From assembly GCA_043802865.1 (NCBI GenBank), contig JAZDKQ010000031.1, forward strand, positions 1 through 52,864: DNA of 52,864 nt, written 5' to 3'. The notes below the pieces were generated by a model that was not told the origin of the DNA, ran no database searches, and worked only from the letters and a program-made list of their open reading frames with translations. Within the stretch, counting starts at the first letter, position 1. Every line of letters starts with the position of its first letter. Shown piece by piece: positions 19,836-51,728 of this stretch. Both the position numbers and the translations under genes were made by a program. The DNA comes from Candidatus Moraniibacteriota bacterium. GTDB lineage: Bacteria > Patescibacteriota > Minisyncoccia > Moranbacterales > UBA11712.

Positions 19836-19945
19836 AAGTACGAGCTTCAGTCAAAAAAATTTGTATTAAGTGCAAGATCGTTCGGCGGAAAGGCAAACTT
19901 TTTGTTATCTGCACAAACCCAAAACATAAGCAAAGACAAGGATAA
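19832..19945 (+). CDS. rpmJ: 50S ribosomal protein L36 (37 aa; below the ORF-track cutoff)
   Basis: [41 protein letters not shown] overlap with infA. CxxC...C...H zinc motif. Confidence 0.92.
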
Positions 19946-19948
19946 AAT

Positions 19949-27367: not shown

Positions 27368-28425
27368 GCCGATATCTTTCTCTTCACGTCTTCTTCTTCA
27401 AGCATGTCAATGATTTTTCCCAAATCACCATCCAGAATCGATGAAATATTGCTCCAGCTTTCTTTGATGCGATGGTCGGTGATCCGGTCTTGCGGGAAAT
27501 TGTATGTTCGGATCTTTTCCGACCGGTCGCCGGTTCCGATCTGGCTTTTTCTCTCTACGCCAAGTTCTTTCGCTCTTTTTTCTTCCCGGGTCGCCAAGAT
27601 CCGCGAACGCAGAACCTTCAGGGCTTTTTCCTTGTTTTTGATCTGCGACTTCTCGTCCTGGCAAGATACGATCATTCCTGTTGGGATATGCAGGATGCGG
27701 ACAGCGCTGTGAGTCGTATTGACGCTCTGTCCGCCTGGTCCGGAAGAACAAAAAGTGTCGATGCGCAAATCATTGAGGTTGATTTCAATATCCATCTCTT
27801 CCGCCTCAGGAAGAACAGCGACAGTGGCAGTTGAAGTGTGGACTCTGCCCATCTTCTCTGTTTCCGGAACTCTTTGCACGCGATGCACGCCCGACTCGTA
27901 TTTCATCTTTCCGAATACGTTTTTTCCTTCAATACTGGTGATCACTTCTTTGAAACCGCCGATGGAATTGGGACTCGAGCTCAAGATCCCGGCTTGCCAA
28001 TTGTTTTTTTCCGCGTAGCGCAAATACATTTTCAAAAGCTGGGCCGCAAAAAGCGCCGATTCATCTCCGCCCGCCCCCGCCCGGATTTCAATGATCACAT
28101 TTCGGCTGTCGTGCGGATCTTTTGGGACAATCATTTTTTTAAGTTCTTCTTCAGCTTCTTCCTTCTTTTTTGACAGTTTCATATTTTCCTCCATTGCCAT
28201 TTCTTTGATTTCCGCTTCAGTCTCGCTGTTCACGATCTCGGCGTTTTCCCGCATGTTTTTTTCGATGTTTTCGAGTTCTTGAATTTTCGCAATTGTCTCT
28301 TCTAATTCCGCCATTCTTTTCCCGATCACTTTCATTTTTTGAGAATCAGAAACAATCCCGGGCTTTTCCAGCTCGTTTTTCAGTTCGACATATTCATTCT
28401 TAATCGCATCAAGTTGATTTTTCAT
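27364..28425 (-). CDS. prfA: peptide chain release factor 1
   Basis: GGQ motif [11 protein letters not shown]; RF1-type tripeptide PET ([14 protein letters not shown]). The likely start is [12 protein letters not shown] at 28425; the track ORF extends to 28467. Confidence 0.93.
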
Positions 28426-34842: not shown

Positions 34843-35865
34843 ATGCTGCAGAAAAAAATCAAAGATTTGAAAGTAAAAGCCACTTCTGAAATCAAGAAGA
34901 CCGCTGATGAACGGGTGCTTTTTGATGTCAAGGTGAAATACTTGGGAAGAAAAGGAATATTGATAGATATCTTGAAAAGCCTCAAAGGCTTGAACGAAAG
35001 CGAAAGAAAAACCATTGGACCGTTGGCCAACGAGGCGAGGCAGGCTATTGAAAAAGAAATTGCCAATCGCAAAAAAGAAATTTCAGAAAAAATTGACTGG
35101 GAGAAAGAAAAGATTGACGTGACGTTGCCGGGAGAAAAGAATGAAATTGGAAGTTTGCACCCGATCACGATTGTGCGACGTGAAATCGAAGAAATCTTTG
35201 CTTCCATGGGTTTTGAAATCACCGATGGTCCCGAATTGGAGTTTGAAAAATATAATTTTGATGCATTGAATTTCCCGAAAGATCATCCGGCACGTGATAT
35301 GCAAGACACTTTTTGGATCAAGTCACAGAAAGAAAAACTCCTATTGAGAACTCATACTTCTCCTGTCCAAATAAGGTATATGGAAAAACACAAGCCGCCA
35401 TTCCAAGTGATCGTTCCGGGGCGGGTTTTTCGAAACGAAGCGACGGATGCGAAACACGAACACACATTGCATCAATTCGAAGCTTTGGTGGTGGGAGACA
35501 ATATTAATGTCGGGCACTTCAAATACCTGGCCAAACAATTTTTCAGCGCTTTTTTCGGAATAAAAACGGACATACGGCTTCGACCCAGCTTTTTTCCTTT
35601 TACCGAACCGAGTTTTGAATTTGATATAACCTGTGCAATTTGTTCCGGAAAAGGTTGTTCAACCTGCAAAAACGCCGGATGGATCGAAATCGGTGGTGCG
35701 GGAGTGGTCAATCAGAACGTGTTTGTCGCTTCGGGCTATCCTCGAAACAAGTATCAGGGTTTTGCCTGGGGATTTGGATTGGAACGCTTGGCTATGATGA
35801 AATATAAAATAGATGATATTCGGCTTTTTCAAAGCGGAGACTTGAGATTTATTAAGCAGTTTTAG
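34843..35865 (+). CDS. pheS: phenylalanine--tRNA ligase alpha subunit
   Basis: HPARDMQDTFW; RTHTSPVQIR; RPSFFPFTEPSFEFDI; GFAWGFGLERLAMMKY. Confidence 0.95.
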   Translation: MLQKKIKDLKVKATSEIKKTADERVLFDVKVKYLGRKGILIDILKSLKGLNESERKTIGPLANEARQAIEKEIANRKKEISEKIDWEKEKIDVTLPGEKNEIGSLHPITIVRREIEEIFASMGFEITDGPELEFEKYNFDALNFPKDHPARDMQDTFWIKSQKEKLLLRTHTSPVQIRYMEKHKPPFQVIVPGRVFRNEATDAKHEHTLHQFEALVVGDNINVGHFKYLAKQFFSAFFGIKTDIRLRPSFFPFTEPSFEFDITCAICSGKGCSTCKNAGWIEIGGAGVVNQNVFVASGYPRNKYQGFAWGFGLERLAMMKYKIDDIRLFQSGDLRFIKQF

Positions 35866-35866
35866 T

Positions 35867-37903
35867 ATGAAATATTCATATAATTGGCTAAAAGAGTTGT
35901 CCGGGACGAAATTGTCGCCTGAAAAACTGGCAGATCTTTTGATGATGCGGTCGTTTGAGTTCGAAGAAATGAAAAAAGAGGGGAAAGAAACACAGCTTGA
36001 ATTCGCGATTCTTCCCAATCGCGCTCATGATATGTTGTCGCACATTGGTATGGCGCGGGAAATTTGCGCGGTGGAAGGGCGGAAGCTGAAATCCCCCTCA
36101 ATCCCCCTTTATAAAAGGGGGAGCGGAGCGGAATCGACTCTAAATATTGAAATAAAAGACAAAAAGCTTTGTTCCCGATATATTGGAGCGATTCTTGAAA
36201 ACATAAAAGTTGCGTCTTCGCCGAAATGGATGCAGGAAAGATTATTAGTATCTGGAGTGAAGCCGATTAATAATATTGTCGATATCACGAACTATGTGAT
36301 GCTTGAAACGGGACAACCGCTTCATGCGTTTGACGCAGAGAAGACAACCGTGAATATAATCGTGCGCAAAGCCAAAAAAGGAGAAGAAATAAAGCTATTG
36401 GATGAAAAAATATATAAACTCCATGAAAATAATCTCGTGATTGCTGACAGCGAAAAAGCTTTGGCACTGGCTGGGGTGATGGGCGGAGTTGAATCAAGCG
36501 TGACGGCGAAGACCAAAAACATAATCCTTGAATCGGCCAATTTCAATTTGACCAATATCCGAAAATCAAGGACGCGCTACAATATCATCACGGAATCTTC
36601 GTACCGTTTTGAACGGGACATCGACCCAAATTTGGCGGAAGAAGGTATTTCGCGGGCAATCGAACTTCTTCAAAAATTTGGAGGAAATAATGTGAAAATG
36701 ACTGCATATGCTGATATATATCAGAAAAAAGTGAAGCCGTGGCAGATAAAATTAAACACTGATTATGTGAATAGTCTTTTGGGCGAAAAGATTCCGGTTT
36801 CCAAAATGAAAAGCATTCTTGAAAATCTCGGCCTTGGCGTAAAAATTTCGAAAAATATATTAAATTGCGAGATTCCAACTCGGCGGATCGATCTCAAAAC
36901 GCAGGAAGACCTCATCGAAGAAATCGGCCGGATATATGGATACGAAAATATTTCCGCCAAAGCTCCGGTGGTTGAATTATCGACGCCGGCAGTCAATGAA
37001 AAAATAATTTTTGAAGACAAGCTCCGGGATATTTTGATCGGAAGCGGTTTTTCGGAAGTGATGAGCTATTCTTTCTATGGCGCGGATGACATCGAGAAGT
37101 GCGGACTTAGGATTGAGGGACATTATGAAGTATCCAATCCGATGAATCCGGATCAGCAATATATGCGGACAAGTTTGATCCCCGGAATTTTGAAAAACGT
37201 TGAACTAAATCTCAAGAACTTTGAAGAATTTTCTATTTTTGAGATTGGACGCAAATATCACGATGAAAAGAAGAATATGCCTGTGGAAAAAACTGTTTTG
37301 GTTGGAGCTTTTGTTTGTTCATCAAAGTGGGTTATTGACACAACAAATCCGAGTAATGCTTATTTCGAATTGAAAGGAAAAATTGAAGCGCTTTTCGAAG
37401 CTTTATCGATGAAAGTTGAATTTGCCGAGCCGAAAATCGCAGGCAGCATCTGTCATCCAAAACGCAGTGCCGTTATTAAGCTAAAAGATAAAATCGTTGG
37501 ATATATTTGTGAAATCAATCCAAAAGTTTTGAGCGAGTATAAAATAAAAACTCGCGTGGCGGCATTTGAGTTGAATATCGCAGATATTCTGGAACTAACC
37601 CCATTTCAAAAAGAATACAAATCCATCAGCAAATTTCCTTCCGTCAAGCGTGATGTTTCAATGTTCGTCGGAAAAGACACAAAATACAACGAAATAGCGA
37701 CGAAAATCAACGAAGCGGACAAGAAATTGATCCTAGGAGTTGAATTGTTCGACATTTTCGAAAAAGAAGGCGAAAAAAGCATGGCCTTGCACGTTGAAAT
37801 CGGCTCCCGCGAGAAAACTTTGACATCTGCTGAAATTGACGGCGTGATGAAAAAGATTATTTCGAAATTGGAAAAAGATTTGAAAGTGAAAGTGAGAAAA
37901 TAA
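35867..37903 (+). CDS. pheT: phenylalanine--tRNA ligase beta subunit (shortened, 678 aa)
   Basis: MKYSYNWLKEL... start; B3/4 region CSRYIGAILENIKVASSPKWMQERL; B5 domain; C-terminal FDIFEKEGEKSMALHV. The gene pair sits with pheS, 1 nt apart. Confidence 0.9.
   Translation: MKYSYNWLKELSGTKLSPEKLADLLMMRSFEFEEMKKEGKETQLEFAILPNRAHDMLSHIGMAREICAVEGRKLKSPSIPLYKRGSGAESTLNIEIKDKKLCSRYIGAILENIKVASSPKWMQERLLVSGVKPINNIVDITNYVMLETGQPLHAFDAEKTTVNIIVRKAKKGEEIKLLDEKIYKLHENNLVIADSEKALALAGVMGGVESSVTAKTKNIILESANFNLTNIRKSRTRYNIITESSYRFERDIDPNLAEEGISRAIELLQKFGGNNVKMTAYADIYQKKVKPWQIKLNTDYVNSLLGEKIPVSKMKSILENLGLGVKISKNILNCEIPTRRIDLKTQEDLIEEIGRIYGYENISAKAPVVELSTPAVNEKIIFEDKLRDILIGSGFSEVMSYSFYGADDIEKCGLRIEGHYEVSNPMNPDQQYMRTSLIPGILKNVELNLKNFEEFSIFEIGRKYHDEKKNMPVEKTVLVGAFVCSSKWVIDTTNPSNAYFELKGKIEALFEALSMKVEFAEPKIAGSICHPKRSAVIKLKDKIVGYICEINPKVLSEYKIKTRVAAFELNIADILELTPFQKEYKSISKFPSVKRDVSMFVGKDTKYNEIATKINEADKKLILGVELFDIFEKEGEKSMALHVEIGSREKTLTSAEIDGVMKKIISKLEKDLKVKVRK
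36102..36122. repeat. 9-bp stem / 3-nt loop hairpin embedded in-frame in pheT
   Basis: TCCCCCTTT-ATA-AAAGGGGGA encodes ...SIPLYKRGS.... It is preceded by a direct repeat ATCCCCCT x2 (36091-36108). Confidence 0.75.
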
Positions 37904-38377
37904 ATGAATCATCCCAAACCAACAAAAATAACAACCCTTTGTTTTGTACGCAAACATCCAAAGATACTACTAGGTATGAAAAAGCGGGGATTTGGTGAAG
38001 GGCGCTGGAACGGATACGGCGGGAAAGTGAAAAATGGCGAAACATTGGAAGAAAATATCATCAGGGAAATGCAAGAAGAATGCGGGCTCACGCCGACAAA
38101 ATTCGAAAAACGAGGCGTATTATACTTTGAATTTGAGGAAATTCCCAAACAAATCATCGAAGTGAACTTATTTTCCATAGACGAGTATGACGGAGAGCCG
38201 GTCGAAACCGAAGAAATGAGGCCGCAATGGTTCGATGTCGATGAGCTTCCTTGGAATGAAATGTGGTCGGATGATATTCATTGGTATCCCTTGTTTTTGG
38301 AAGGAAAGAAATTCAAAGGCAATTTTCTTTTCGACGGGCAGGAAAAAGTTATCAGACATGAACTTGAAGAAATATAA
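37904..38377 (+). CDS. NUDIX hydrolase (MutT-like)
   Basis: Nudix box GGKVKNGETLEENIIREMQEECGL (GX5EX7REUXEEXGU). Starts immediately after the pheT stop. Confidence 0.85.
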   Translation: MNHPKPTKITTLCFVRKHPKILLGMKKRGFGEGRWNGYGGKVKNGETLEENIIREMQEECGLTPTKFEKRGVLYFEFEEIPKQIIEVNLFSIDEYDGEPVETEEMRPQWFDVDELPWNEMWSDDIHWYPLFLEGKKFKGNFLFDGQEKVIRHELEEI

Positions 38378-38383
38378 TTTTCA

Positions 38384-39187
38384 ATGAAAGAAATTTCCAA
38401 ACATTACAACCCTTCCGAAGTTGAGCCGAAGTGGCGGGAATTTTGGGAGAAGAATAATATTTATAAATTCAATCCCAAGGCCAAAGGGGAGATTTTTTCC
38501 GTGGACACGCCGCCGCCGACAGTGAGCGGAAAAATGCATATTGGTCACGCTTATTCATACACGCACGAAGATTTCATTGTTCGATATCGCCGAATGAAAG
38601 GCGAAAATGTATTTTTTCCTTTCGGAACGGACAATAATGGCCTTGCAACGGAAAGATTGATCGAAAAAATGAAAAATGTCCGGGCCGGCAAAATGGATCG
38701 CAATGAATTCATCAAATTATGCAATCAAACAGTCAAAGAAATTACGCCTGATTTCATATTGGATTGGCAAAAAATTGGCATGTCTTGCGATTTTTCAAAG
38801 ATCTACTCGACAATTGACGACAACAGCCGCTGCGCGAGCCAAAAATATTTCATTGATTTATATCAAAAAGGCCACGCCTATCGCCAGGAAGCGCCGGTGG
38901 TTTGGTGCCCGCATTGTCAAACGGCCATTGCCCAAGCGGAACTCGAAGACAAAGAAGTCGAAACTCTTTTCAATGATATCGTTTTCAAGCTGAAAGATAA
39001 AAAAAATCTGATCATTGCCACGACCCGCCCGGAACTGCTTTCGAGTTGCGTCGCGGTTTTCGTGCATCCGCGCGATTTGAGATACAAAAAATTAATCGGG
39101 CAAAAAGCGCAAGTGCCGATTTTCGGCAACAAAGTTGAAATATTGGCAGACAAAAAAGTGGATCCCGAGAGGGGACGGGCGCGGTGA
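38384..39187 (+). CDS. valS: valine--tRNA ligase, N-terminal fragment (frame interrupted near 39167-39175)
   Basis: YNPSEVEPKWREFWEKNNIY; DTPPPTVSGKMHIGHAYSY (HIGH); FGTDNNGLATE. Ends ...KKVDPERGRAR*, where homologues read VDPE.GTGAVM. Confidence 0.85.
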   Translation: MKEISKHYNPSEVEPKWREFWEKNNIYKFNPKAKGEIFSVDTPPPTVSGKMHIGHAYSYTHEDFIVRYRRMKGENVFFPFGTDNNGLATERLIEKMKNVRAGKMDRNEFIKLCNQTVKEITPDFILDWQKIGMSCDFSKIYSTIDDNSRCASQKYFIDLYQKGHAYRQEAPVVWCPHCQTAIAQAELEDKEVETLFNDIVFKLKDKKNLIIATTRPELLSSCVAVFVHPRDLRYKKLIGQKAQVPIFGNKVEILADKKVDPERGRAR

Positions 39188-40737
39188 TGTGCTGTACGTT
39201 CGGCGACAAAACCGATGTGGAGTGGTTCAAAGAATACAAACTGCCACTTGTTATTTCGCTCGAAAAGTATGGAAAAATGTCGGAACGGGCGAAAAAATAC
39301 GCGGGACTTTCAGTCAAAGATGCGCGCCAAAATGTCATTGAAGATCTGCAAAAGAAAAAACTGCTAATTGGCCAGAAAAAAATCACGCACTCAGTTAATA
39401 TTCACGAAAGATGCAAAAATGAGGTTGAAATCCTGAATTCCAAACAATGGTACATCAAAATTCTCGACAAAAAGAAAAAATTCATCGAACTTGGAAAAAA
39501 AATCAAGTGGCATCCGCCCTTCATGCGGGCGCGCTATGAAAACTGGATCAACAATCTCGGCTGGGATTGGGCAATCTCGCGCCAAAGATTTTTCGGCATT
39601 CCGTTTCCAGTTTGGTATTGCGAGAAATGTGGAGAAGTGAAACTGGCCGATGTTGAAGATCTGCCGGTTGATCCGCTCACCGACAAACCAAAAGGAAAAT
39701 GCGCGAAGTGCGGAGGAACAAAATTCATACCCGAAAAAGATGTGCTCGACACTTGGGCGACCAGTTCCATTTCTCCGCAGCTTGCTTTGCAATTATTTTT
39801 TTCCGAAAAAGATGCGCAAAAAATTATCCCGATGAATCTTCGTCCGCAAGCTCATGACATAATTTCAACTTGGCTTTTCTATACAGTTGTTCGCTCAAAC
39901 TATCATTTTGACAAAATTCCGTGGAAAAATGTCATGATTTCGGGACATGTCCTTGATTCAAAAGGGGGGAAAATGTCAAAAAGTCTTGGCAACGCGGTTG
40001 CGCCGCAAGAAATATTTGAACGATATGGTTCGGACGCTTTGCGCTATTGGTCAGCCGAAAGCAGTTTGGGACAGGATATAAACTATTCTGAAGATGAAAT
40101 AAAAATAGGCAAAAAAACCACGACCAAACTCTGGAATGCCGCCAGGTTCATGGCGATGAACGTGAAAAAAACGGAATTGCTCAAATCTATAGATATAATT
40201 GAGCCGGCAGATGCGTGGATCGTTGACGAGCTGAACAAAACAATTGTGAAAACGACCAAAGCTTTCGAAAACTACGCCTACGCGAAAGCCAAAGAAGAAA
40301 TCGACAGTTTTTTCTGGTCAAAATTCGCGGACTATTATGTCGAGTTTGTAAAATATAGATTCTTCGGAGATGACGCAAAATCGAAAAAAACGGGCGAAAA
40401 AACGATCGCGACCGTATTTTTCAATATCGTGAAACTCTATGCGCCGATCATGCCATTTGTCACAGAAGAAATTTTCCAAACCTATTTTAAACATCTTGAA
40501 AAAGTGAAGAGTATCCACATTTCTAACTGGCCGGAAGAAATAAAATTGAAAAAATCACCTGAAATTTCGGATTTTGAAAACGCGATCAAGGCGGTTGATG
40601 AGATCAGAAAGCACAAAACAAAGCAAAATATTTCTCTTGGAGCGGAAATTGATTCAATTAAACTAAAAACCAAAGTAAATTTGAAGAAATACGGCGAGTT
40701 TTTGAGAAAAGTAGGAAGAGTGGGAAAAATAAATTAA
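39184..40737 (+). CDS. valS: valine--tRNA ligase, C-terminal fragment (frame -1 relative to the N-fragment)
   Basis: This frame reads (E)GTGAVMCCTFGDKTDVEWF from 39169 onward and continues the N-fragment homology seamlessly. KMSKS motif GGKMSKSLGN. The anticodon-binding domain follows. Confidence 0.85.
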   Translation: MMCCTFGDKTDVEWFKEYKLPLVISLEKYGKMSERAKKYAGLSVKDARQNVIEDLQKKKLLIGQKKITHSVNIHERCKNEVEILNSKQWYIKILDKKKKFIELGKKIKWHPPFMRARYENWINNLGWDWAISRQRFFGIPFPVWYCEKCGEVKLADVEDLPVDPLTDKPKGKCAKCGGTKFIPEKDVLDTWATSSISPQLALQLFFSEKDAQKIIPMNLRPQAHDIISTWLFYTVVRSNYHFDKIPWKNVMISGHVLDSKGGKMSKSLGNAVAPQEIFERYGSDALRYWSAESSLGQDINYSEDEIKIGKKTTTKLWNAARFMAMNVKKTELLKSIDIIEPADAWIVDELNKTIVKTTKAFENYAYAKAKEEIDSFFWSKFADYYVEFVKYRFFGDDAKSKKTGEKTIATVFFNIVKLYAPIMPFVTEEIFQTYFKHLEKVKSIHISNWPEEIKLKKSPEISDFENAIKAVDEIRKHKTKQNISLGAEIDSIKLKTKVNLKKYGEFLRKVGRVGKIN

Positions 40738-40739
40738 CT

Positions 40740-40840
40740 TGTCATCCTGATGTTTCGACATTTTGTCGGAACGAAGGATCTCGTCAAAATTTGCACGGGA
40801 TTCTTCCCCCGCCGCCTTTAGCGGCGGAGTCAGAATGACA
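40740..40840. repeat. MITE/REP-like element with 11-bp terminal inverted repeats (1 mismatch) and two internal hairpins
   Basis: TGTCATCCTGA (40740-40750) / TCAGAATGACA (40830-40840). Internal hairpins: GTTTCGAC/GTCGGAAC (40752-40772) and CCGCCGC-cttta-GCGGCGG (40809-40827). It fills the valS-ispH spacer. Confidence 0.7.
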
Positions 40841-40847
40841 GCATTAT

Positions 40848-41687
40848 ATGAAAATAACCATCGGCAAGCATTCTGGTTTTTGTTTCGGCGTGAGGCGCGC
40901 CTATGATTTGACATGCGTCAATTCAAAAGATTGCGATGATGTTTTCATCCTTGGCAAGCTTGTTCACAACAATGACGTTTGCCAAGATTTGTATAAGCGC
41001 GGGATCAAGGAAATCAAAGCCTTGTCTGATATCAAAGATGGGACAGTGATCTTTACCGCGCATGGTGTCGGACCGGGTTTCTATGAAAAAGCGAGCGCGA
41101 GAGGGCTCAAGATCATCGACACGACCTGTCCAAAGGTGATGAAGGCACAAAGACTGGCCAAAAATTATACTGAAAAAGAATATGTCGTTCTGGTTTTCGG
41201 CGATAAAAACCACAAAGAAGTGAAAAGTATTTTTGAATGGTCGGGAAGAAAAGCAAGAGTAATCGGCAGTTTTGAGGAAATAAAAAAAATAAATCTCAAT
41301 AAGACCAAAAAATACTGTCTCATTTCGCAGACAACCCAAAATGTCGAAGAGTTCAAAAAAATCATCGCCTATCTCAAAAAAAATCTCAAAAATTTTGTTT
41401 TTTTCAATACAATCTGCCCATCGACGAACGATCGCCAAAAAGAAGTGCGTGCTCTCGCCAAAAACAATGACGTCGTGGTCGTGATTGGTGGAAAAGACAG
41501 CGCCAACTCGAGAATGCTGTATGAAATCTCAAGAGCGATAAATAAAAAAACATATTTCATTGAAAATGCCAGGCAATTGAAGAAAAACTGGTTTAATGGT
41601 ATAAAAAGAACAGCTATATCAGCAGGAGCATCCACACCCGAGTGGATAATTGAAGAAGTTATCAATAAAATAAATTCACTTGCATGA
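40848..41687 (+). CDS. ispH: 4-hydroxy-3-methylbut-2-enyl diphosphate reductase (IspH/LytB)
   Basis: GFCFGVRRA; LVHNNDV; TAHGVGP; DTTCPKV; SQTTQ; NTICPSTNDRQ; GGKDSANS; SAGASTPEW. Confidence 0.9.
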   Translation: MKITIGKHSGFCFGVRRAYDLTCVNSKDCDDVFILGKLVHNNDVCQDLYKRGIKEIKALSDIKDGTVIFTAHGVGPGFYEKASARGLKIIDTTCPKVMKAQRLAKNYTEKEYVVLVFGDKNHKEVKSIFEWSGRKARVIGSFEEIKKINLNKTKKYCLISQTTQNVEEFKKIIAYLKKNLKNFVFFNTICPSTNDRQKEVRALAKNNDVVVVIGGKDSANSRMLYEISRAINKKTYFIENARQLKKNWFNGIKRTAISAGASTPEWIIEEVINKINSLA

Positions 41688-42916
41688 AACAATCTCAACT
41701 TTTCACCAAAACTCAAAAAAACGCGCCCAAGAATGAGACGAGTCTCAACGCCCAGCTTTTGATTCGGGGAGGATTTGTCGACAAACTGATGGCGGGTGCC
41801 TATACGATCCTTCCGCTTGGATTTCGCGTGCTGAAAAAGATCGAGCAGATCATCCGCGAAGAGATGAACGCTATCGGCGGGCAGGAAATTTTCATGCCGT
41901 CGCTTCAGCCCAAAGAAAACTGGGAAAAAACAGGAAGATGGAGCACAATGGATGATCTCTATAAAGTGAAAGACGCGAGCGACCGTGAATTTGCCCTTGG
42001 GCCGACGCACGAGGAAATCATTTCGCCTCTCATGAAAAAATTCGTGAATTCATACAAAGATTTGCCTTTCGCCGCCTATCAATTCCAAAACAAATTCCGG
42101 ATGGAGCTCCGAGCCAAATCGGGCATTTTGCGCGGGCGCGAGTTTGTCATGAAAGACCTGTATTCATTTCACATCAGCCAGGAAAACCTGGATGAATATT
42201 ATGAAAAAGCCAAAATAGCCTACAGAAATATTTTTGACCGCGCTGGCATCGGCGAAAAAACATTCCTGACTTTCGCGTCCGGCGGATCATTTTCGAAATA
42301 TTCGCATGAATTTCAAACGCTCACTTCGGCCGGAGAAGATACTATACACATCTGCAACAAATGCGGCATGGCAATCAACAAAGAGATAAAAGAAGAAACT
42401 CCCGAGTGTCCTGAATGCAAAAGCAAGGATTTTCGCGAGGAAAAAGCCGTTGAAGTGGGAAATATTTTTAAACTGGGGACGAAATACAGCGCCCCGTTTG
42501 ATCTCATAGTCACAACCGAAAAAGGCGAAAAGGTGCCGATCATTATGGGATGCTATGGAATTGGCCTCCAACGCCTTATGGGAACAATTGTCGAGCTCTG
42601 CAGCGATGAAAACGGCATCAGCTGGCCGGAATTTGTCGCGCCTTTTCAGGTTCATCTGATCAGCCTCGGAAAAAACGAAGAAGCCGAAAAAATATACAGT
42701 GATCTTGAGAAAAACAATATCGAAGTTTTGTATGACGACCGCGAAGACACAAGCGCCGGGGGAAAATTCGCCGACGCGGATCTCATCGGCATCCCGTGGC
42801 GCATGGTGGTCAGTCAAAAATCCCTCGCCGGCGGGGGAGTGGAAGTGAAAAAAAGAAACGAAAAAGAAAGCGAGATCGTTGAAATTGACAAATTAAGCAG
42901 TTTGATAAAAAAATAA
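41684..42916 (+). CDS. proS: proline--tRNA ligase, minimal bacterial-type form lacking the INS editing domain
   Basis: MKQSQLF.KT.K..P..E.S.NAQLLIRGGF; class II motif 2 FRMELRAKSGILRGREFVMKDLYSF; motif 3 region GCYGIGLQRL; C-terminal anticodon-binding domain. ATGA overlap with ispH. Confidence 0.9.
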   Translation: MKQSQLFTKTQKNAPKNETSLNAQLLIRGGFVDKLMAGAYTILPLGFRVLKKIEQIIREEMNAIGGQEIFMPSLQPKENWEKTGRWSTMDDLYKVKDASDREFALGPTHEEIISPLMKKFVNSYKDLPFAAYQFQNKFRMELRAKSGILRGREFVMKDLYSFHISQENLDEYYEKAKIAYRNIFDRAGIGEKTFLTFASGGSFSKYSHEFQTLTSAGEDTIHICNKCGMAINKEIKEETPECPECKSKDFREEKAVEVGNIFKLGTKYSAPFDLIVTTEKGEKVPIIMGCYGIGLQRLMGTIVELCSDENGISWPEFVAPFQVHLISLGKNEEAEKIYSDLEKNNIEVLYDDREDTSAGGKFADADLIGIPWRMVVSQKSLAGGGVEVKKRNEKESEIVEIDKLSSLIKK

Positions 42917-42926
42917 AATAATTTCA

Positions 42927-43661
42927 ATGGACACCCAAAAAACACCAAAAGAAAATCAAAACATCACTCTCGACAAAAAATCCAAGATACTTTTTGCGGT
43001 CATCGGAATTTTGATCATTGGCTCGGTCGCTGTGACTTTTTGGCGCTATATGATCAAGCGCGATTATATCGTCCAAGCCCAAACCGATTGCGATCCGGAA
43101 TCGGAAGCCTGTTTTGTTTGGGAGTGCGACCCGGCCTCGGATGAAGAAGGCTATGCTTGCACCGGCGATCCGGAAAGTGATATCTGGTATTATAAAATAG
43201 TCCATCGCAACGCCAAAAATATTCCCGACTGCGATCCGAACAACGAAGATTGCACGGCTCTCGTCTGCGATCCGGGAGAAAAAGACTGCTCTGAAGAGTT
43301 GTGTACCCCGGAAAATGTCCCCGAAGACGAATCCTGCAATGATCCGGAGCAATATCTCATAGACAATCCTCCGGAAGAAGAATGCGCAGAGGATGATGAG
43401 GAGTGTCTGGCTGAAGAAGAATGCGCTGAAGACGATGATGAGTGTTTGGCGGAGCAGGAAGCAATTGAATGCGAAGAGGGCGATGAGGAATGCTTGTCAG
43501 AAGAAGCTACCGACGAAGCTTGCGCGCTCGATGATCAAGAGTGTCTCGATGCCCAGGATTCGGAGGATACGGAAGAAACATGCGCGCCCGATGATCCGAC
43601 TTGTGGTCAAACGCAAGATTCAGACACAAGTCCCGATAGTTCGGTCATCTTGACCCCATAG
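42927..43661 (+). CDS. membrane-anchored, extremely acidic Cys-rich repeat protein
   Basis: TM helix ILFAVIGILIIGSVAVTFW. This is followed by Cys-paired segments and tandem EECAEDDEECLAE-type repeats, matched by approximately 36-39-nt DNA repeats from about 43375. Confidence 0.55.
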   Translation: MDTQKTPKENQNITLDKKSKILFAVIGILIIGSVAVTFWRYMIKRDYIVQAQTDCDPESEACFVWECDPASDEEGYACTGDPESDIWYYKIVHRNAKNIPDCDPNNEDCTALVCDPGEKDCSEELCTPENVPEDESCNDPEQYLIDNPPEEECAEDDEECLAEEECAEDDDECLAEQEAIECEEGDEECLSEEATDEACALDDQECLDAQDSEDTEETCAPDDPTCGQTQDSDTSPDSSVILTP

Positions 43662-43807
43662 TTTGCGTCAAAAGCGACGTAAAAATATTTTATCTGTGTT
43701 TATGCAAACTCGTTTACCGGGCTTGTTTTTTCGCTTTCTGTTTGCTATATTTGAATTACTATCTGCTAAAATAAAGTCTAGCAATCATAATTTCTTAGTG
43801 AAACACA

Positions 43808-45073
43808 ATGGACGCGAACAAAAATTGGGAAATCCTGAAGCAAAATGATCCGGAGGTGTATGACGCTTTGATCGGTGAAGAAAAAAGGGAGCAAAAGGGA
43901 GTGGAGCTCATTCCTTCAGAAAATTATACCTACCCCGAAGTTTTTGCCGCCAATGGCTCGATTCTCACCAACAAATACGCCGAAGGGTATCCGGGCAAAC
44001 GATATTATGGCGGGCAAGAATACACGGACATTATTGAAAACCTCGCCAGGGATCGCGCCAAAGAGCTGTTTCGTTGCGAACACGCCAACGTCCAGCCCCT
44101 TTCCGGATCTCCCATGAACCAGGCCGTGTATTTTGCATTTCTCAATCCCGGCGACACGGTTCTCGCAATGGATCTTTCCCATGGAGGTCATTTGACCCAC
44201 GGCGCGCCTGTTTCGCATATGGGGAAAGTCTTCAATTTTGTCCGCTACAAGACCCATCCGGAGGAAAAGGGAAGAATTGATTTTGAAGAATTGTTGAGAG
44301 TGGCAAAGGAATGCAAACCGAAAATAGTCATGTGCGGATATACTTCCTATCCTCGGGACTATGACTATGCCGATTTCAAGGAGGTGGCCGACGAAGTGGG
44401 AGCGATGACGTTCGCGGACGTCGCGCATATCGGCGGGTTGATCGCGGCGGGAGTGATGAGAAATCCTTTTGATTTTGGTTTTGACGTGGTTTCGACAACG
44501 ACCCACAAATCACTGCGCGGTCCCAGAGCCGGCATGATAATGTGCAAACAGCAATACGCCGCCCAGATCGACAAGTCCGTTTTTCCCGGTCTCCAGGGCG
44601 GTCCGCATATGCAAACGGTCGCATCAATAGCCGTCACGCTGGGCAAAGCGCTTGAACCGGAATTCAAGGAATACGGAAAGCAAATTCTGGCCAACTCAAA
44701 AACTTTGGCTCAAGAACTTATGGATAACGGCGTGAAACTTGTCACGGATGGAACGGACAATCATATGATGGTGGCGAACACGATGCAGAGCTTCGGCATC
44801 GACGGCAAGCTGGCGGAACAAACTTTGGACAAAATTTCCATCACCGTCAACAAGCAGATCATCCCGGATGACCCCAATCCGCCATTGAAACCCAGTGGAA
44901 TCCGACTTGGCACTCCGGCGGCGACAACACGCGGAATGAAAGAAGATGATATGAAAAAATTGGCAGCCTGGATCATCGAAGCATTGAAGAATAATCAGGA
45001 CGAAAGCAATCTGGAGGAAATCAAAAAAGAAGTAGGAAAGTTCTGCGTCAAATTCCCGGTGCCGGGGATATAA
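43808..45073 (+). CDS. glyA: serine hydroxymethyltransferase
   Basis: ELIPSENY; NKYAEGYPGKRYYGG; VQPLSGSPMN; VVSTTTHKSLRGPR (PLP lysine). Confidence 0.95.
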   Translation: MDANKNWEILKQNDPEVYDALIGEEKREQKGVELIPSENYTYPEVFAANGSILTNKYAEGYPGKRYYGGQEYTDIIENLARDRAKELFRCEHANVQPLSGSPMNQAVYFAFLNPGDTVLAMDLSHGGHLTHGAPVSHMGKVFNFVRYKTHPEEKGRIDFEELLRVAKECKPKIVMCGYTSYPRDYDYADFKEVADEVGAMTFADVAHIGGLIAAGVMRNPFDFGFDVVSTTTHKSLRGPRAGMIMCKQQYAAQIDKSVFPGLQGGPHMQTVASIAVTLGKALEPEFKEYGKQILANSKTLAQELMDNGVKLVTDGTDNHMMVANTMQSFGIDGKLAEQTLDKISITVNKQIIPDDPNPPLKPSGIRLGTPAATTRGMKEDDMKKLAAWIIEALKNNQDESNLEEIKKEVGKFCVKFPVPGI

Positions 45074-45235
45074 AATATAGCTGATTTTATTTTGCCCAAA
45101 CCCCAATCCATGGCCAATGAAACCTTCCATTTCGGCGCGCATCTCACGGCAATTTTCCCCAAAATCGACGCTTCACGCAAAAAGGCTTATACAAGACCCT
45201 TTTTTTGCTTTGTGAAACATCGGGAGATCAACTGC

Positions 45236-45264
45236 TTGACTTGCGCCATTTTTTGGAGTATAAT
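45236..45264 (+). promoter_or_regulatory. sigma70-type promoter
   Basis: TTGACT (45236-45241), 17-nt spacer, TATAAT (45259-45264). The downstream SD AAGGAGGTG precedes the ATG at 45332. Confidence 0.55.
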
Positions 45265-45331
45265 TGAAAGTTAGGTGAAAATAGGGGAATTTTTGCCGAG
45301 TCCCTTGAAAATTTGATAAGGAGGTGTCGCG

Positions 45332-45934
45332 ATGAGCGGTTGGCTGAAAAAAGTCGCCGCGAAATGCGCGGCGCAAAAGGGAAGAATCGCAACTTTAGCA
45401 CTCGGCCACACGGTCTTTCATACCACCGAGCAGATTTTCAATTACGGTATCTATATTCCCGTAATTGGATTTTTGGGCGTAATTTACGGCGGTTGTCTAA
45501 TGACCATGCTTTCCTTTCTGACCTGTTATGGCATCCTTAAATTCTACGACTGGTCCAAAAAAGACTGGCTCGGAATAGAAGTTGTCAAGGATGTGAGGGA
45601 TTTCGGTCCGGAGTGGATCAAGAAGCTTCAAGTGAAGTCTATCCTTGGAAAAATTCTTTGGTGGCCTTTTTCAAAAATCATCTTTTTTGTCCTTTGGTCA
45701 CTTAAAAGGGGTGGAGCCATTGCCTTCTTTGCTCTTAGCATTTACACTGATCCTTTCACTACAACAGTGTATTTTCGCAAAGGATCATTCAATGGCCTGT
45801 TAAAAAAAGACTGGTTTATTTTTGTGGCGAGTGTTCTGCTTGGAAATATCTACTGGATCGGCAGAACTTATCTGATCATCCTCGTTGCAAAATTTGGATT
45901 TAACTACTGGTGGAAAATATTTTTCACCAACTAA
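45332..45934 (+). CDS. integral membrane protein, unknown function (4-5 TM)
   Basis: Strong SD; hydrophobic segments (IYIPVIGFLGVIYGGCLMTMLSFLTCYGIL; IIFFVLWSL; FIFVASVLLGNIYWI). A terminator follows. Confidence 0.55.
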   Translation: MSGWLKKVAAKCAAQKGRIATLALGHTVFHTTEQIFNYGIYIPVIGFLGVIYGGCLMTMLSFLTCYGILKFYDWSKKDWLGIEVVKDVRDFGPEWIKKLQVKSILGKILWWPFSKIIFFVLWSLKRGGAIAFFALSIYTDPFTTTVYFRKGSFNGLLKKDWFIFVASVLLGNIYWIGRTYLIILVAKFGFNYWWKIFFTN

Positions 45935-45961
45935 AGCGCGTCTCATTGAGCCGCGCTTTTT
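45933..45961 (+). terminator. rho-independent terminator
   Basis: AAAGCGCG (45933-45940) / CGCGCTTT (45952-45959) with an 11-nt loop and a T-run. Confidence 0.6.
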
Positions 45962-46415
45962 CAATTTCATTTAACTAATCTCACTCCCGCTTCAAGCAAT
46001 TTTTCAAAATTTCTGTTTTTTCTCCAAACTTCCTGAAGTTTTTTGCGTGGATAATCAAATTTTTATATTTAGTCATCGGATTTTCTCGGATGTATTTTTT
46101 TACAATTTTTTGAGCTTGATAATTTTTTGCAAATTATCTGTCATATGCTTTCTGATAATTCAACCCTCAGTTCCTCTAGAAAATCATTTTAAAAGACAAC
46201 TCTTTTTTTGCTATTTTTTTGCTGTTCCTCTATAATTATGATGAAAAAAAATTATAGTTGGTGGGTTACTCCCTATCCTATCAACATTTTTCATGAAACA
46301 ATACGGCCATATGGATGAGCCAAAAATAGGTTACAGCCTGTTGCTTCCCCCTATTTTATGCTACAATAAAAACGGAGAGGGAATTAGTAGTTATAATAAC
46401 TAGCTGTTTTGATTT

Positions 46416-47210
46416 ATGCCTGAAGCAAACATTGTAAGGGGGAAAGATGGCAAACTGCGACTTGAAAATTTTTACACGCCGCTTGCGGAGGCGAAAAAAG
46501 AAATCCGAAAAAGATGGAAGGATAAGAAGTTAAAAAAAGAAATACTGAAATTTCTAGAAAACGACATACCACCTGTTTTCACAAAAAAGCCAAGAGCAGT
46601 GTTTGCAAGGCATGTAGCGACACCGAATCTCGAGCATCAGTATTTTCAGAGGAAGGCTTGTGCTGCTGAGTTGAATCCACTTTTCTTAGAATATCCAGAG
46701 GATAAATTTGCGCCAGAAAATGCACCGAAATATTATCTAGGAAAAATATTTTTTCTTTACAAAAGGGGGAAAAATGAAGGGTATGTTAGTTCCTGCAAAA
46801 AAATAATAGATTTTGATAAATGCTCCGGTAAGTCAATAAGTAAAATATTTTTAAATCAAGTTAAATTGAAAAAATTAGTTGATTTTCATCATACTATTCT
46901 CGATAAAGCCTTACCCAATTTAGATAGATACGACATTTCAAACTGGTATATGAAAAAAGGAGGAAAACCTGAAAAATACTATAAGTATCTGTTTTCTCTA
47001 TTCATTAGAAATGGCATATTGTTTGAAAATTATTTACTCAATAAAGAAGAAATTGATTTTACAAAAAAAATTATTATACCGTCATTTTCAAAAGTTGAAA
47101 AATGTTTTAATATTAAACCATTGATTGTCAGACTTCTTCCGCAAAAAAATGAAGCTGAACCATTCTGGTATTGGTATTCAGGATCTGTTGAAAAATACTT
47201 TACCCAATAA
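46416..47210 (+). CDS. hypothetical 264-aa soluble protein, no recognisable family
   Basis: A long ORF in a very AT-rich stretch. No SD. K-rich with scattered aromatic motifs (LEYPEDKF, FWYWYSGS). Coding is inferred from ORF length only. Confidence 0.45.
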   Translation: MPEANIVRGKDGKLRLENFYTPLAEAKKEIRKRWKDKKLKKEILKFLENDIPPVFTKKPRAVFARHVATPNLEHQYFQRKACAAELNPLFLEYPEDKFAPENAPKYYLGKIFFLYKRGKNEGYVSSCKKIIDFDKCSGKSISKIFLNQVKLKKLVDFHHTILDKALPNLDRYDISNWYMKKGGKPEKYYKYLFSLFIRNGILFENYLLNKEEIDFTKKIIIPSFSKVEKCFNIKPLIVRLLPQKNEAEPFWYWYSGSVEKYFTQ

Positions 47211-47221
47211 ATAAAAAATAA

Positions 47222-48913
47222 ATGAATTTTGACCTAGTTAGTACAGTTGAAACGTGCTACACATACGTCAAAGATAATCCTCCTCTTCTATTCTATTCCC
47301 ATATTCCTACAGCGATAGTTTCTCTACTAATCGGTCTTTTTGTCTTCCTAAAAAATAGGAAGTTACTGATTGGTAAAATACTAATCGCCATTTCTCTCGC
47401 ATTTTCATTGTGGTCTTTTTTGGATCTGATAATATGGACTAGTTATGATAGCGGCAAAATCATGTTCTCATGGGCTATATTAGGAATACTTAGTGATTCC
47501 TTCTTTATACTTAGTCTGTATTTTCTTTATACATTTATTGAAAAAAGAGATGCGCCATTATGGCCTAAAACAATTTTGTCTGCTCTTTTATTACCCGTTA
47601 TTATCTTATCTTTTACAAAATTAAATCTGCTATATTTCGATATTCCAAACTGTGAATCGACTGAAGCAAATTTTATTATAAATTATAATCATTTACTTCA
47701 GCTTTTCGTTGCTTTATGGATTCTTGTCTTGTTTATATCAAAGTATAGGAAATCGGAAAAAGTGGAAAGAAAGCAAATGACAATTGCAACTATTGGAATT
47801 TATTTGTTTTTGCTTTCATTTTTCATAACTGATTTTATATCTGTCAAACTTGACGGAGTTGTTGATTATAATTATGAAATTGGCATGTATGGTCTCTTTG
47901 GTATGGTTTTCTTTGTAGCTTTTCTTGCCTATCTCATCGTCAAATACAAGGCTTTCAATATCAAGCTCATTGCCACGCAGGCTCTCATTACTGCGTTGAT
48001 CATCGGAATTGGTTCGCAATTCTTTTTCATTCAAAATACGACCAATGTTATTCTCAACGCGATAACTTTGGCGTTGGTTCTCGGATTTGGATATATGCTT
48101 GTGAAATCGGTGAAACTTGAAGTCCAACGAAAAGAGGAGCTGCAAAAACTTTCGGATGAGCTCGCGCTTGCCAATGAGAAACTCCGCCAGCTGGACAAGG
48201 CCAAGTCGGAATTCATATCCATTGCGTCGCATCAGTTGCGCACGCCCCTCACTTCGATCAAGGGCTTCGGGTCCTTGCTTCTTGAGGGGACATACGGCGA
48301 GATTCCACAGGCGCAAAAAGGAGTGCTGGAGAAGATATATATTTCCAATGAACGGCTCATTCAATTGGTTGAAGATCTGCTCAATATATCCAGAATCGAA
48401 GCGGGAAGAATGGAATTTGATTTCCAGGAAGCGCAAATTGAGGATCTCGTCCAGGAAGCCGTGACAACCCTCGAACTGGCCGCCAAAGCCAAGAATCTCT
48501 ATCTCCATTGGGAAAAGCCGGCGGTTGCGATGCCGAAACTCAAGATCGACATCACAAAGATCAAAGAAGTGATCTCGAATATGCTGGACAATTCGATCAA
48601 ATATACCCAAAAAGGCGGAATCACGGTTAAGCTTGAAACAAATACTGTCTGGAGCACGGATCATAAAGAACATCAAAGCACTGTCCGCGTCATTGTTTCC
48701 GACACGGGAATCGGAATGGATGAGGAAGAAATCAATATGATCTTCGAGAAATTCCAGCGCGGAAAGCAAGTTTCGCACTATCACACCGACGGTATGGGAC
48801 TGGGAATGTATATCGGCAAGAAAATCGTCGCCGAACACAAAGGCAAGATTTGGGCGGAATCGGAAGGAAAGGGCAAGGGGAGCCGGTTCGTGTTGGAATT
48901 GCCGGTGAACTAG
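47222..48913 (+). CDS. sensor histidine kinase with polytopic (about 7-8 TM) N-terminal sensor domain
   Basis: H-box EFISIASHQLRTPLTSIKG; N-box ISNMLDNSIKYT; G1 box SDTGIGM; G2 box GMGLGMYI. Confidence 0.88.
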   Translation: MNFDLVSTVETCYTYVKDNPPLLFYSHIPTAIVSLLIGLFVFLKNRKLLIGKILIAISLAFSLWSFLDLIIWTSYDSGKIMFSWAILGILSDSFFILSLYFLYTFIEKRDAPLWPKTILSALLLPVIILSFTKLNLLYFDIPNCESTEANFIINYNHLLQLFVALWILVLFISKYRKSEKVERKQMTIATIGIYLFLLSFFITDFISVKLDGVVDYNYEIGMYGLFGMVFFVAFLAYLIVKYKAFNIKLIATQALITALIIGIGSQFFFIQNTTNVILNAITLALVLGFGYMLVKSVKLEVQRKEELQKLSDELALANEKLRQLDKAKSEFISIASHQLRTPLTSIKGFGSLLLEGTYGEIPQAQKGVLEKIYISNERLIQLVEDLLNISRIEAGRMEFDFQEAQIEDLVQEAVTTLELAAKAKNLYLHWEKPAVAMPKLKIDITKIKEVISNMLDNSIKYTQKGGITVKLETNTVWSTDHKEHQSTVRVIVSDTGIGMDEEEINMIFEKFQRGKQVSHYHTDGMGLGMYIGKKIVAEHKGKIWAESEGKGKGSRFVLELPVN

Positions 48914-48945
48914 TATTTTGTATCTTGTATATAGTATTTAGTATT
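48912..48945. repeat. second copy of the heptad-periodic motif (AGTATTTTGTAT CTTGTAT ATAGTATTTAGTATT)
   Basis: Matches 20349-20375 apart from a 7-nt insertion. It starts inside the kinase stop codon. Confidence 0.7.
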
Positions 48946-48966
48946 TTTTTGAATGCCAGATAATTC

Positions 48967-48995
48967 TTGTAATTTCGTGCCAGATATGGTACGAT
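48967..48995 (+). promoter_or_regulatory. candidate promoter with flanking/overlapping direct repeats TGCCAGATA
   Basis: TTGTAA (48967-48972), 17-nt spacer, TACGAT (48990-48995). The 9-mer TGCCAGATA occurs at 48954-48962 and 48978-48986, 24 nt apart. Confidence 0.35.
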
Positions 48996-49023
48996 TTTTT
49001 AGTAATTATTGATCTGTTTTACT

Positions 49024-50304
49024 ATGCAAAAGAAAAAGGGGAAAGTCTGCGTGATCGGGCTTGGATATGTCGGATTTCCGCTGGCGGTTCAGTGCGCGGT
49101 GAAAGGATATGGGGTTTTTGGATATGACAAGGATGAGAAAAAGCTCTCTCGCATCGAAAAAGGCGAGAATATTGTTGATGAAAAATATCTTGATGAACTC
49201 TTGCCAAAAACAAAGATAAATATTGTCCGTGATGAGAAAAAAATAAGCCAATGCGATATATTCATCATTGCAGTTCCCACTCCTGTCGATGAAAAATATT
49301 ATCCCGATTTAAGTTTTGTGGAAGCGGCCTCTCGAACGGTCGCGGAAAATATGAAGAGCGGCGCGCTCGTCGTTGTCGAATCGACGATCAATCCGGGGGT
49401 TTGCGAGGAAGTTGTCCGACCGATATTTGAAAAAGCAGGCTGGGAGATTGGAAAAAGCGTTTTTATTTCCCATTGCCCGGAAAGAATCAATCCCGGAGAC
49501 AAAAAATGGAATGTGACGAATATTCCCCGAGTCGTCGGTTCTTTTGACGAAATTGGTTTGAATAAATCCGTGAAATTCTATGAAAGCATTATTGATGCCG
49601 AAATTATGCCAATGAAAACCATCCGCGAAGCTGAAGCTGCCAAAATTATCGAGAATTCATTCAGAGACGTGAATATCGCTTTTGTGAACGAACTCGCAAA
49701 GTCTTTTGACCTCATGGGGATCGATATTGTGAATGTCATCAAGGGCGCCGCGACCAAACCTTTTGCCTTCATGCCCCATTGGCCGTCATGCGGAGTTGGA
49801 GGCCATTGTATTCCAGTCGATCCGTATTATCTCATCGAAAAAGCCAAAGAAAACGATTTTGACCACAAATTTTTGAGAACTGCGCGCGCGATAAATAATA
49901 GCATGCCGCTTTATACGGTTGAATTGACGCAGGATGCCTTGAACGAGGTCGAAAAGCCGTTCAAGAACACAAATATAGGCATACTGGGTATTTCATATAA
50001 GGCAAATGTAGGCGATTTGCGAGAAAGTCCTGCATTGAAAATTATTGAGCTGCTGAAAGGACACGGGGCAAATGTTCATATCTTCGATCCATATGTGCCG
50101 GCCAAATCAACGGCAGCCAGCTTGAGCGAACTGCTTGATAGTGTCGACGCGATCATAATCACGGCAGATCATAAAGAATTCAAAGATTTGCAGCCTGAAA
50201 TATTGAAAAAAAAGAACATCACAGTCGTGATAGACGGAAAAAATTGTCTTAACAAGGACAACATCCAAAAGTTGGGTATTATTTACAAAGGTATAGGGCG
50301 ATAG
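49024..50304 (+). CDS. nucleotide-sugar dehydrogenase (UDP-glucose/UDP-ManNAc/GDP-mannose dehydrogenase family)
   Basis: KVCVIGLGYVGFPLAV Rossmann motif; catalytic GVGGHCIPVDP; C-terminal GISYKANVGDLRESPA. The ATG at 49024 is preferred over the track start at 49009. Confidence 0.88.
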   Translation: MQKKKGKVCVIGLGYVGFPLAVQCAVKGYGVFGYDKDEKKLSRIEKGENIVDEKYLDELLPKTKINIVRDEKKISQCDIFIIAVPTPVDEKYYPDLSFVEAASRTVAENMKSGALVVVESTINPGVCEEVVRPIFEKAGWEIGKSVFISHCPERINPGDKKWNVTNIPRVVGSFDEIGLNKSVKFYESIIDAEIMPMKTIREAEAAKIIENSFRDVNIAFVNELAKSFDLMGIDIVNVIKGAATKPFAFMPHWPSCGVGGHCIPVDPYYLIEKAKENDFDHKFLRTARAINNSMPLYTVELTQDALNEVEKPFKNTNIGILGISYKANVGDLRESPALKIIELLKGHGANVHIFDPYVPAKSTAASLSELLDSVDAIIITADHKEFKDLQPEILKKKNITVVIDGKNCLNKDNIQKLGIIYKGIGR

Positions 50305-50308
50305 AAAG

Positions 50309-50336
50309 TTGTTTTTGTCTGAAAATCTGATATAAT
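50309..50336 (+). promoter_or_regulatory. promoter with extended -10
   Basis: TTGTTT (50309-50314), 16-nt spacer, TATAAT (50331-50336), preceded by TGa. Confidence 0.45.
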
Positions 50337-50363
50337 ACGGACATAAGCCTTAACTTCAAATTT

Positions 50364-51188
50364 ATGCCTAAAATAATTGTCGTCGAGGATGATCCGATGC
50401 TCGGGGAAATATATGAGAAAAAATTCAGCGATGCCGGATTTGAAATGAAGCTAGTAACCAGTGGAAAGGCAGTCGAAGGCGATGTGGCCGCCTATCAGCC
50501 CGAAATGGTGCTTCTAGACATCGTTCTTCCTGATATGGATGGGTATGAAATTTTGGAAGCTTTGTCGAAAAATGACGCCACTCGCTCTGTTCCGGTCTAT
50601 GTTTTCAGCAACTTGAGCGCGAAAGAAGATATCGAAAGGGCGACAACTCTCGGAGCGAAAGGATTCATCACAAAATCAAGTTTCACTCCGTCTCAATTGG
50701 TTGAGGAGGTGAAAAAAATTCTTGGGAGTGCTCCGGCTGTGGAAGATACAACTGCTGCAACAAGCGTTCCAACCTCAAGCGGCGCCGAAAAATCTATTTC
50801 GAACCAAAAAGAAAAAAACAGTCACAAAGTTCTGATCATTGAAGATGAGGATGTTTTCATTGAAATGTTCGGTGATAAATTGAAACAGGAAGGATTTGAA
50901 GTTGTTTCAGCCAAAAACGGAAAATGGGGACTCAAAGAGGCCGAAGAGGGCGGATTCAGTTGTATCTTGCTTGATATGATGATGCCGGCGATGAATGGAT
51001 ATGAAGCTGTCAAAGAACTGCGCGCAAACGAAAAAACGAAAGATACGCCGATCATCATCCTTTCCAATTCAGCGCTTGACAGCGAAGTGCAAAAGGCGAT
51101 GGAACTCGGAGCAAACGAATATTATATCAAAACCCAAGTGACCCCCGGCGAAGTGGCGGATCGGGTGAAGGAATTGATCAAGAAATAA
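50364..51188 (+). CDS. response regulator with two tandem receiver (REC) domains and no output domain
   Basis: REC1: IIVVEDDP...MVLLDIVLPDMDGYEIL...FSNL...KGFITKS. REC2: VLIIEDED...CILLDMMMPAMNGYEAV...LSNS...EYYIKT. The two are joined by an approximately 35-aa linker. Confidence 0.85.
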   Translation: MPKIIVVEDDPMLGEIYEKKFSDAGFEMKLVTSGKAVEGDVAAYQPEMVLLDIVLPDMDGYEILEALSKNDATRSVPVYVFSNLSAKEDIERATTLGAKGFITKSSFTPSQLVEEVKKILGSAPAVEDTTAATSVPTSSGAEKSISNQKEKNSHKVLIIEDEDVFIEMFGDKLKQEGFEVVSAKNGKWGLKEAEEGGFSCILLDMMMPAMNGYEAVKELRANEKTKDTPIIILSNSALDSEVQKAMELGANEYYIKTQVTPGEVADRVKELIKK

Positions 51189-51201
51189 GTAGCAGCCGTT
51201 T

Positions 51202-51243
51202 CCTAACATTCAATGTTAGGAGCGCCTAACATTGAATGTTAGG
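51202..51243. repeat. two tandem 19-nt palindromes that are reverse complements of each other
   Basis: CCTAACATTCAATGTTAGG (51202-51220), then agcg, then CCTAACATTGAATGTTAGG (51225-51243). They can fold as two hairpins or as one 19-bp hairpin. The 3' arm contains the AGGA of the aspS SD. Confidence 0.9.
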
Positions 51244-51250
51244 AAAATTT

Positions 51251-51676: not shown

Positions 51677-51728
51677 AAGAGCAAGAATAATCAAATTCAT
51701 TCGTGATTTCTATACGGAAAAAAATTTC

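Follow-up and report, generated by a model that had tools for sequence, protein, structure and literature searches.

The valine-tRNA ligase gene valS (38384–40737, plus strand) occupies two reading frames in the window, that is, in the whole stretch of 52,864 nucleotides analysed here. In the organism itself the gene is probably intact, and the A missing at the junction of the two frames would then reflect a mistake in sequencing, assembly or consensus calling, or else a variant that is not representative. Judged by the aligned sequences, the break is one A lost from a Lys codon of valS. An initial annotation, made from the letters alone, had pointed to an extra base restoring a single open reading frame as the mark of an assembly error. 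Such a base was found at the level of public contigs: all four contigs covering the junction, from three runs and three studies, carry a net gain of one base there, which in one contig is the sole difference from the window.

The two pieces of valS as assembled

The window is a housekeeping region. It contains the rml sugar-nucleotide cluster, genes for the ribosomal proteins S13, S11, S4, L17, L13, S9 and S2, rpoA, an RF-1-type release factor gene, tsf, a gene for a Clp-type ATPase, pheS, pheT, a NUDIX gene, valS, ispH, proS, glyA and aspS. The features discussed below are listed in Table 1.

Table 1. Location and content of the valS and aspS pieces, the frame-change site and the class I paralogues of valS
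Feature	Location	Strand	Description
valS piece 1	38384–39187	+	267 aa; NF009687 positions 4–266, 387.6 bits; Pfam tRNA-synt_1 positions 2–185; first half of the Rossmann fold with HIGH (38537–38548) and beginning of the inserted editing domain
Frame-change site	39167–39175	+	GAG A-G GGG; one A absent between 39169 and 39171
valS piece 2	39169–40737	+	-1 frame, 522 aa from EGTGAVMCCTFGD; NF009687 positions 266–782 of 801, 647.4 bits; Pfam tRNA-synt_1 positions 182–413 and Anticodon_1, 113.3 bits; remaining editing domain, second half of the catalytic core with KMSKS (39970–39984), anticodon-binding domain
aspS piece 1	51236–51676		OB anticodon-binding domain
aspS piece 2	to 52637		next frame; NF001750 covered from position 142
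Class I paralogue	contig C25		1,026-aa frame, 32% identity to valS
Class I paralogue	contig C40		791-aa frame, 38–41% identity to valS
Class I paralogue	contig C25		490-aa frame, 38% identity to valS

The initial annotation had reported that valS is split by a single-base frame change. The sequence at 39161–39190 and both frames are exactly as given there. At the junction the frame of the first piece is GAT CCC GAG AGG GGA CGG GCG CGG TGA (D P E R G R A R stop). The piece ends in VDPERGRAR, that is, in ADKKVDPERGRAR followed by the TGA stop at 39185–39187, and its final five residues, RGRAR, are out-of-frame read-through. In the -1 frame the codons from 39169 are GAG GGG ACG GGC GCG GTG ATG TGC TGT (E G T G A V M C C). 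This frame begins with EGTGAVMCCTFGDKTDVEW and stays open until the stop at 40735–40737.

Both halves had been described as otherwise intact, with HIGH and KMSKS present, and this proved to be the case: HIGH corresponds to residues 52–55 of the first piece and KMSKS to residues 268–272 of the second, and the profile is covered continuously. The top NCBIfam family for each piece is the ValRS family NF009687 (PRK13208). The curated cut-off of this family is 738 bits and each piece alone scores lower; the scores of the two pieces add up to 1,035 bits, and intact relatives score 949–1,094 bits. The pieces adjoin exactly at profile position 266, so that no coding content is lost. In its coverage of the profile, its HIGH and KMSKS motifs, its editing G-T-G motif and its anticodon-binding domain the valS product resembles the short PRK13208-type enzymes; it differs from them in being spread over two frames, neither of which reaches the cut-off.

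The solved structure closest by sequence to the valS product is the ValRS of T. thermophilus (1gax_A). The stretch GTGAVMCCTFGD of valS was aligned to GTGALKVTPAHD of this enzyme, beginning at residue 265. The region around residue 265, which is matched by the motif following the break, we take to be the inserted editing domain.

The junction in related genomes

Searching 41 genomes, including the genome under study, gave a valS match in all 41 at E <= 1e-50, and the best 20 loci were examined. In each of these 20 relatives valS is one open reading frame across the junction, coding for 785–848 aa, and a frame change at the site was found in none of them. A single continuous reading frame is likewise present in the four junction contigs, whereas it is absent for valS in the window.

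At the junction the relatives read V/I/T, D/E/N, P/L/M/R/E, E/K/Q and K/Y in one frame, with G[TS]G coming next. At the position broken in the window, 16 of the 20 relatives have Lys and the other four have Tyr. Codons were compared for 10 relatives, among them the six closest by nucleotide identity, and all of these use AAG or AAA here, as in GAA AAG GGG ACx. The counterpart of the frame-change site is GAA AAG/AAA GGx in close relatives and GAG AAG GGG in the public contigs; the assembled form of the junction is GAGAGGGG and the form with the extra A is GAGAAGGGG.

The string following the break had been called a conserved ValRS string in the initial annotation. It is real: G[TS]GAVMCC[TI]FGD stands directly past the junction in 13 of the 20 relatives, and the other seven have a more diverged G[TS]G in the same column. 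A further proposal, that re-reading the GAG would give DPEEGTG, is not supported. Glu never occurs at this position in the 20 relatives, the otherwise identical contig has AAG there, the site offers no slippery heptamer and none of the relatives shows a shift.

The junction in public contigs

A search of sequencing runs returned 13 runs that contain part of the stretch, the best with 0.33 of the sampled words. Logan contigs, which are contigs and not raw reads, were taken from four runs (X1–X4) and compared with the window at 85% likeness. Record 3 of X1 (38950–39238, 289 bases, depth 2.9) shows a single gap and no other difference from the window. The gap corresponds to an A behind 39169, and the contig reads GAG AAG GGG ACG (E K G T), giving VDPEKGTG in one frame. 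The same A behind 39169 is found in record 11 of X2 and record 20 of X3, which differ from the window in 29 and 19 other letters, respectively. In record 4 of X1 (17 other letters) one base is missing at 39163 and AA is added behind 39167.

Depth was only 2.2–3.6 in these contigs, and a difference seen in a single contig at a depth under 5 may be an error. X4 has no cover at the valS junction and several bins of X1 are uncovered as well; such holes carry no information. Records 1, 3, 5, 7 and 8 of X1 show no mismatch to the window over a total of 1,019 bases, and X1 therefore contains the same population as the window. As far as can be read from the contig sequence, the valS of X1 differs from that of the window by that A only. 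X1 may or may not be related to the sample from which the window was derived; we infer that the source reads would likewise carry the A. Among JGI metagenome contigs the exact junction pattern, with or without one extra base, gave no match; records of this genome or of near genomes were possibly left out of that collection, and the empty result weighs on neither side.

Copy number and maintenance of valS

The initial annotation had assumed valS to be single copy, and had named a second intact copy as a pointer to a genuine pseudogene. No second valS was found in the assembly of 682,656 bases in 43 contigs, which is 89.7% complete, so that a further copy may have escaped the search. The next hits were the three class I paralogues on C25 and C40 (Table 1), with 32–41% identity; from their lengths we took them to be IleRS-, LeuRS- and MetRS-like. 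The assembly contains three tRNA-Val genes with the anticodons GAC, CAC and TAC, so that a ValRS is needed.

That a true pseudogene is unlikely, as had been argued, holds for a long-standing one. Ka/Ks against four relatives is 0.04–0.08 in both halves of the gene (0.041–0.082 in the first half, 0.048–0.061 in the second). These low values rule out a long-standing decay of valS, but a very recent event would still fit them.

Explanations for the frame change

Four explanations had been put forward initially, namely a 1-nt assembly indel, a recent inactivation, expression in two pieces and -1 recoding. The first is favoured by the data described above, and recoding is unsupported.

According to the favoured explanation, the organism would have an ordinary valS in a single frame. 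Its product, about 784 aa long, would be a class Ia valine-tRNA ligase of the short PRK13208 type, which contains an editing domain as an insertion and also an anticodon-binding domain. One A would have been dropped from the Lys codon in GTG GAT CCC GAG AAG GGG ACG, and as a consequence the frame would seem to break in the editing domain, within its conserved G-T-G motif. This loss would have arisen by an error in sequencing, assembly or consensus calling of the metagenome-assembled genome, or at most from a non-representative variant that was followed by the assembler.

Cooley and Wright (2024, BMC Genomics, PMC11017572) report that many of the 'pseudogenes' attributed to frameshifts in assemblies are artefacts, and that these vary with the assembler, the platform and the coverage. 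The present case resembles such spurious frameshifts in three respects: an essential single-copy gene that is otherwise perfectly conserved is split by an indel of one base, the indel is absent from another data set with the same sequence, and the assembly has further breaks of this type, including some in homopolymers. It differs from them in that the lost base sits in an AA dinucleotide and that the comparison was made with public contigs instead of source reads. The AA dinucleotide, not being a long homopolymer, is a less typical context for a sequencing indel, which counts against an artefact.

The second explanation is a real and recent deletion in the sampled lineage, either a new mutation that inactivates or cripples the gene, or an allele of low frequency in the population that was followed by the assembler. 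We consider this unlikely. Carrier cells would be without normal ValRS, and with a single-copy valS and three tRNA-Val genes in the genome a cell lacking ValRS is unlikely to reach the abundance from which a 52.8-kb contig can be assembled. The base is indeed absent from the deposited assembly at a site that is not a long homopolymer, and the low Ka/Ks suits an artefact and a very recent event equally well; nevertheless, the A is present in otherwise identical contig sequence. The further single-base frame breaks in the genome could be true population variation. However, as aspS is also broken in the window, a technical error is easier to accept than two lethal mutations.

A real deletion could in principle be tolerated if the sole ValRS were made either as two polypeptides, from the GTGATG at 39184–39189, or in full length by a -1 shift of an unconventional kind at GAG AGG GGA. 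For aspS, slippage along the 9 A might possibly have a similar effect. The chance of such a rescued deletion appears very small to us, and neither expression in two pieces nor recoding has positive support.

For two separate polypeptides, translation would stop at the TGA at 39185–39187 and restart at the GTG at 39184 or the ATG at 39187, and the products would assemble non-covalently across the editing insertion. The stop and the candidate starts overlap in the GTGATG, a layout compatible with termination–reinitiation, and the break falls outside the catalytic core, in what we take to be the inserted editing domain, with the G-T-G motif at residue 265 of 1gax_A. However, the conserved G-T-G-A-V residues would be missing from both products. 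Gene starts in the window follow A/T-rich leaders, with an SD-like motif in 4 of 34; the candidate restart follows G+C-rich coding sequence, and compared with these 34 starts no typical start context was found for the second piece at 39184 or 39187.

Class I synthetases split in nature are exemplified by the two-subunit LeuRS of Aquifex aeolicus, and IleRS has reportedly been cleaved experimentally. In the split synthetases that are known, the split itself is conserved and the pieces have starts of their own. Although valS shares with them a class Ia enzyme laid out in two adjacent pieces, it is split in none of the 20 relatives and its second piece lacks a typical start context, and otherwise identical contig sequence holds the intact form. 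We therefore regard two-piece expression as highly improbable.

Finally, programmed -1 ribosomal frameshifting or transcriptional slippage at GAGAGGGG could be proposed to give a full-length ValRS. A -1 shift after AGG would yield VDPERGTGAVM, which has the length found in the relatives with Arg replacing Lys. Known bacterial frameshift sites have SD-like stimulators, to which the AGGGG of the junction is similar. A slippery heptamer of the type X XXY YYZ is absent from the zero-frame codons CCC GAG AGG GGA CGG, however, and the 110 nt from 39161 (39161–39270) fold with a minimum free energy of -33.5 kcal/mol and a z-score of -1.59, 9 of 200 shuffled sequences folding at least as well. Efficient polymerase slippage needs longer runs than the 4 G and 1 A that are present. 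A review (PMC5009743) mentions translational 'correction' of indels. As in programmed -1 frameshifting and slippage-based rescue, two overlapping frames jointly encode one protein; unlike such cases, valS is without a heptamer, a clearly significant structure, conservation and a long homopolymer. Recoding was rejected as scarcely credible, given the missing heptamer, the lack of clear support from the downstream fold, a shift conserved in 0 of 20 relatives and contigs that are intact, carrying the base in the DNA.

For annotation, valS (38384–40737) is best entered as a single gene in which the assembly probably has a gap of 1 base. Should the deletion be true after all, it would be a rare tolerated or rescued frameshift in one or more essential synthetases of a reduced genome, but the evidence points the other way. 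In general, when an essential single-copy synthetase looks broken in a metagenome-assembled genome, reads or other assemblies should be checked before it is called a pseudogene, a split gene or a case of recoding.

Frame breaks elsewhere in the assembly

The second broken synthetase gene of the window, aspS, is interrupted at a run of 9 A (51659–51667). An orthologue (genome G007) reads ATG AAA AAG AAC (M K K N) at this place in one frame. Probably aspS (51236–52637) is likewise one gene with a 1-base assembly error.

Frame changes in the whole assembly were searched for by tblastn of 655 open reading frames, derived from 710,583 fetched bases of the relative G002, against this genome, and in reverse with 629 open reading frames. 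Seven candidate frame changes were found in this genome, including that of valS, and six in G002, which indicates that the assembly is not exceptionally rich in frame breaks. A few such breaks are thus present in each of the two genomes, which is common in draft assemblies from metagenomes. The aspS break was missed by the scan because G002 gave no match to the second aspS piece at E <= 1e-40. An apparent break of rpsD was discarded: this gene is intact at 20918–21556, and a 213-aa open reading frame on the minus strand had out-competed it in the crude gene picking. A run of 11 T on contig C22 (2341–2351) is the site of one of the seven candidates in this genome. At about 21,435–21,450 of contig C25 at least one candidate pair was flagged in both directions of the comparison and may represent real divergence.

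Frame change in aspS

The aspS gene of the window is split by a single-base frame change located in a run of nine A, the sequence there being ATG AAAAAAAAA TAT TAT TGA. With eight A instead of nine the gene would be read in a single frame as M K K N I I E R A. This reading resembles the orthologue in genome G007, which is read in one frame and has M K K N M E at this place. The aspS orthologues are open frames of 464-477 aa, and the product is an AspRS of the short bacterial type without the large insertion. A second copy of aspS was not found in the genome. When the second aspS piece was used as query protein, no match was obtained in the four genomes of the same genus (E <= 1e-40).

Comparison of the genome with the ORFs of the relative G002 yielded six more candidate frame changes, whose contexts were inspected. 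The candidate on contig C25 turned up in the opposite direction of the comparison as well, and it may represent real divergence.

Features of the window and candidate frame changes on other contigs (C numbers) of the same assembly
Feature	Position	Strand	Remarks
aspS, split gene	51236-52637	+	frame change at 51659-51667
Candidate frame change	C22 2341-2351		vs G002; run of 11 T
Candidate frame change	C18 about 27,002-27,051		vs G002
Candidate frame change	C18 about 28,138-28,151		vs G002
Candidate frame change	C35 about 7,793-7,798		vs G002
Candidate frame change	C42 about 22,263-22,324		vs G002
Candidate frame change	C25 about 21,435-21,450		vs G002
DpnI-like gene	17993-18763	+	Pfam 'Dam-replacing family' and its HTH domain
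ORF without Pfam family	13196-14188		E <= 1e-4
ORF without Pfam family	15604-17520		E <= 1e-4; 638 aa
ORF without Pfam family	42927-43661		E <= 1e-4
ORF without Pfam family	45332-45934		E <= 1e-4
ORF without Pfam family	46416-47210		E <= 1e-4
Histidine kinase/response regulator pair	47222-48913 and 50364-51188

Other features of the window

Five aminoacyl-tRNA synthetase genes (pheS, pheT, valS, proS, and aspS) lie on one strand within about 18 kb (34843-52637), with NUDIX, ispH (LytB), and glyA genes scattered among them; proS is of the short form (410 aa).

An SD-like motif was found within 20 nt ahead of the start in only 4 of the 34 gene starts listed, and A/T-rich leaders precede the starts. 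It therefore seems that translation is initiated largely independently of SD motifs in this genome.

The DpnI-like gene, scoring 276 bits for the family and 112 bits for the HTH domain, probably encodes a methyl-directed restriction endonuclease. It is set in a stretch of low G+C content (18001-20000, GC 0.355), and lies just upstream of the cluster of ribosomal protein genes and rpoA.

Several sizeable ORFs could not be assigned to a Pfam family. One group of these is situated in a stretch of markedly low G+C content (46001-48000, GC 0.314) and is adjoined by the histidine kinase/response regulator pair.
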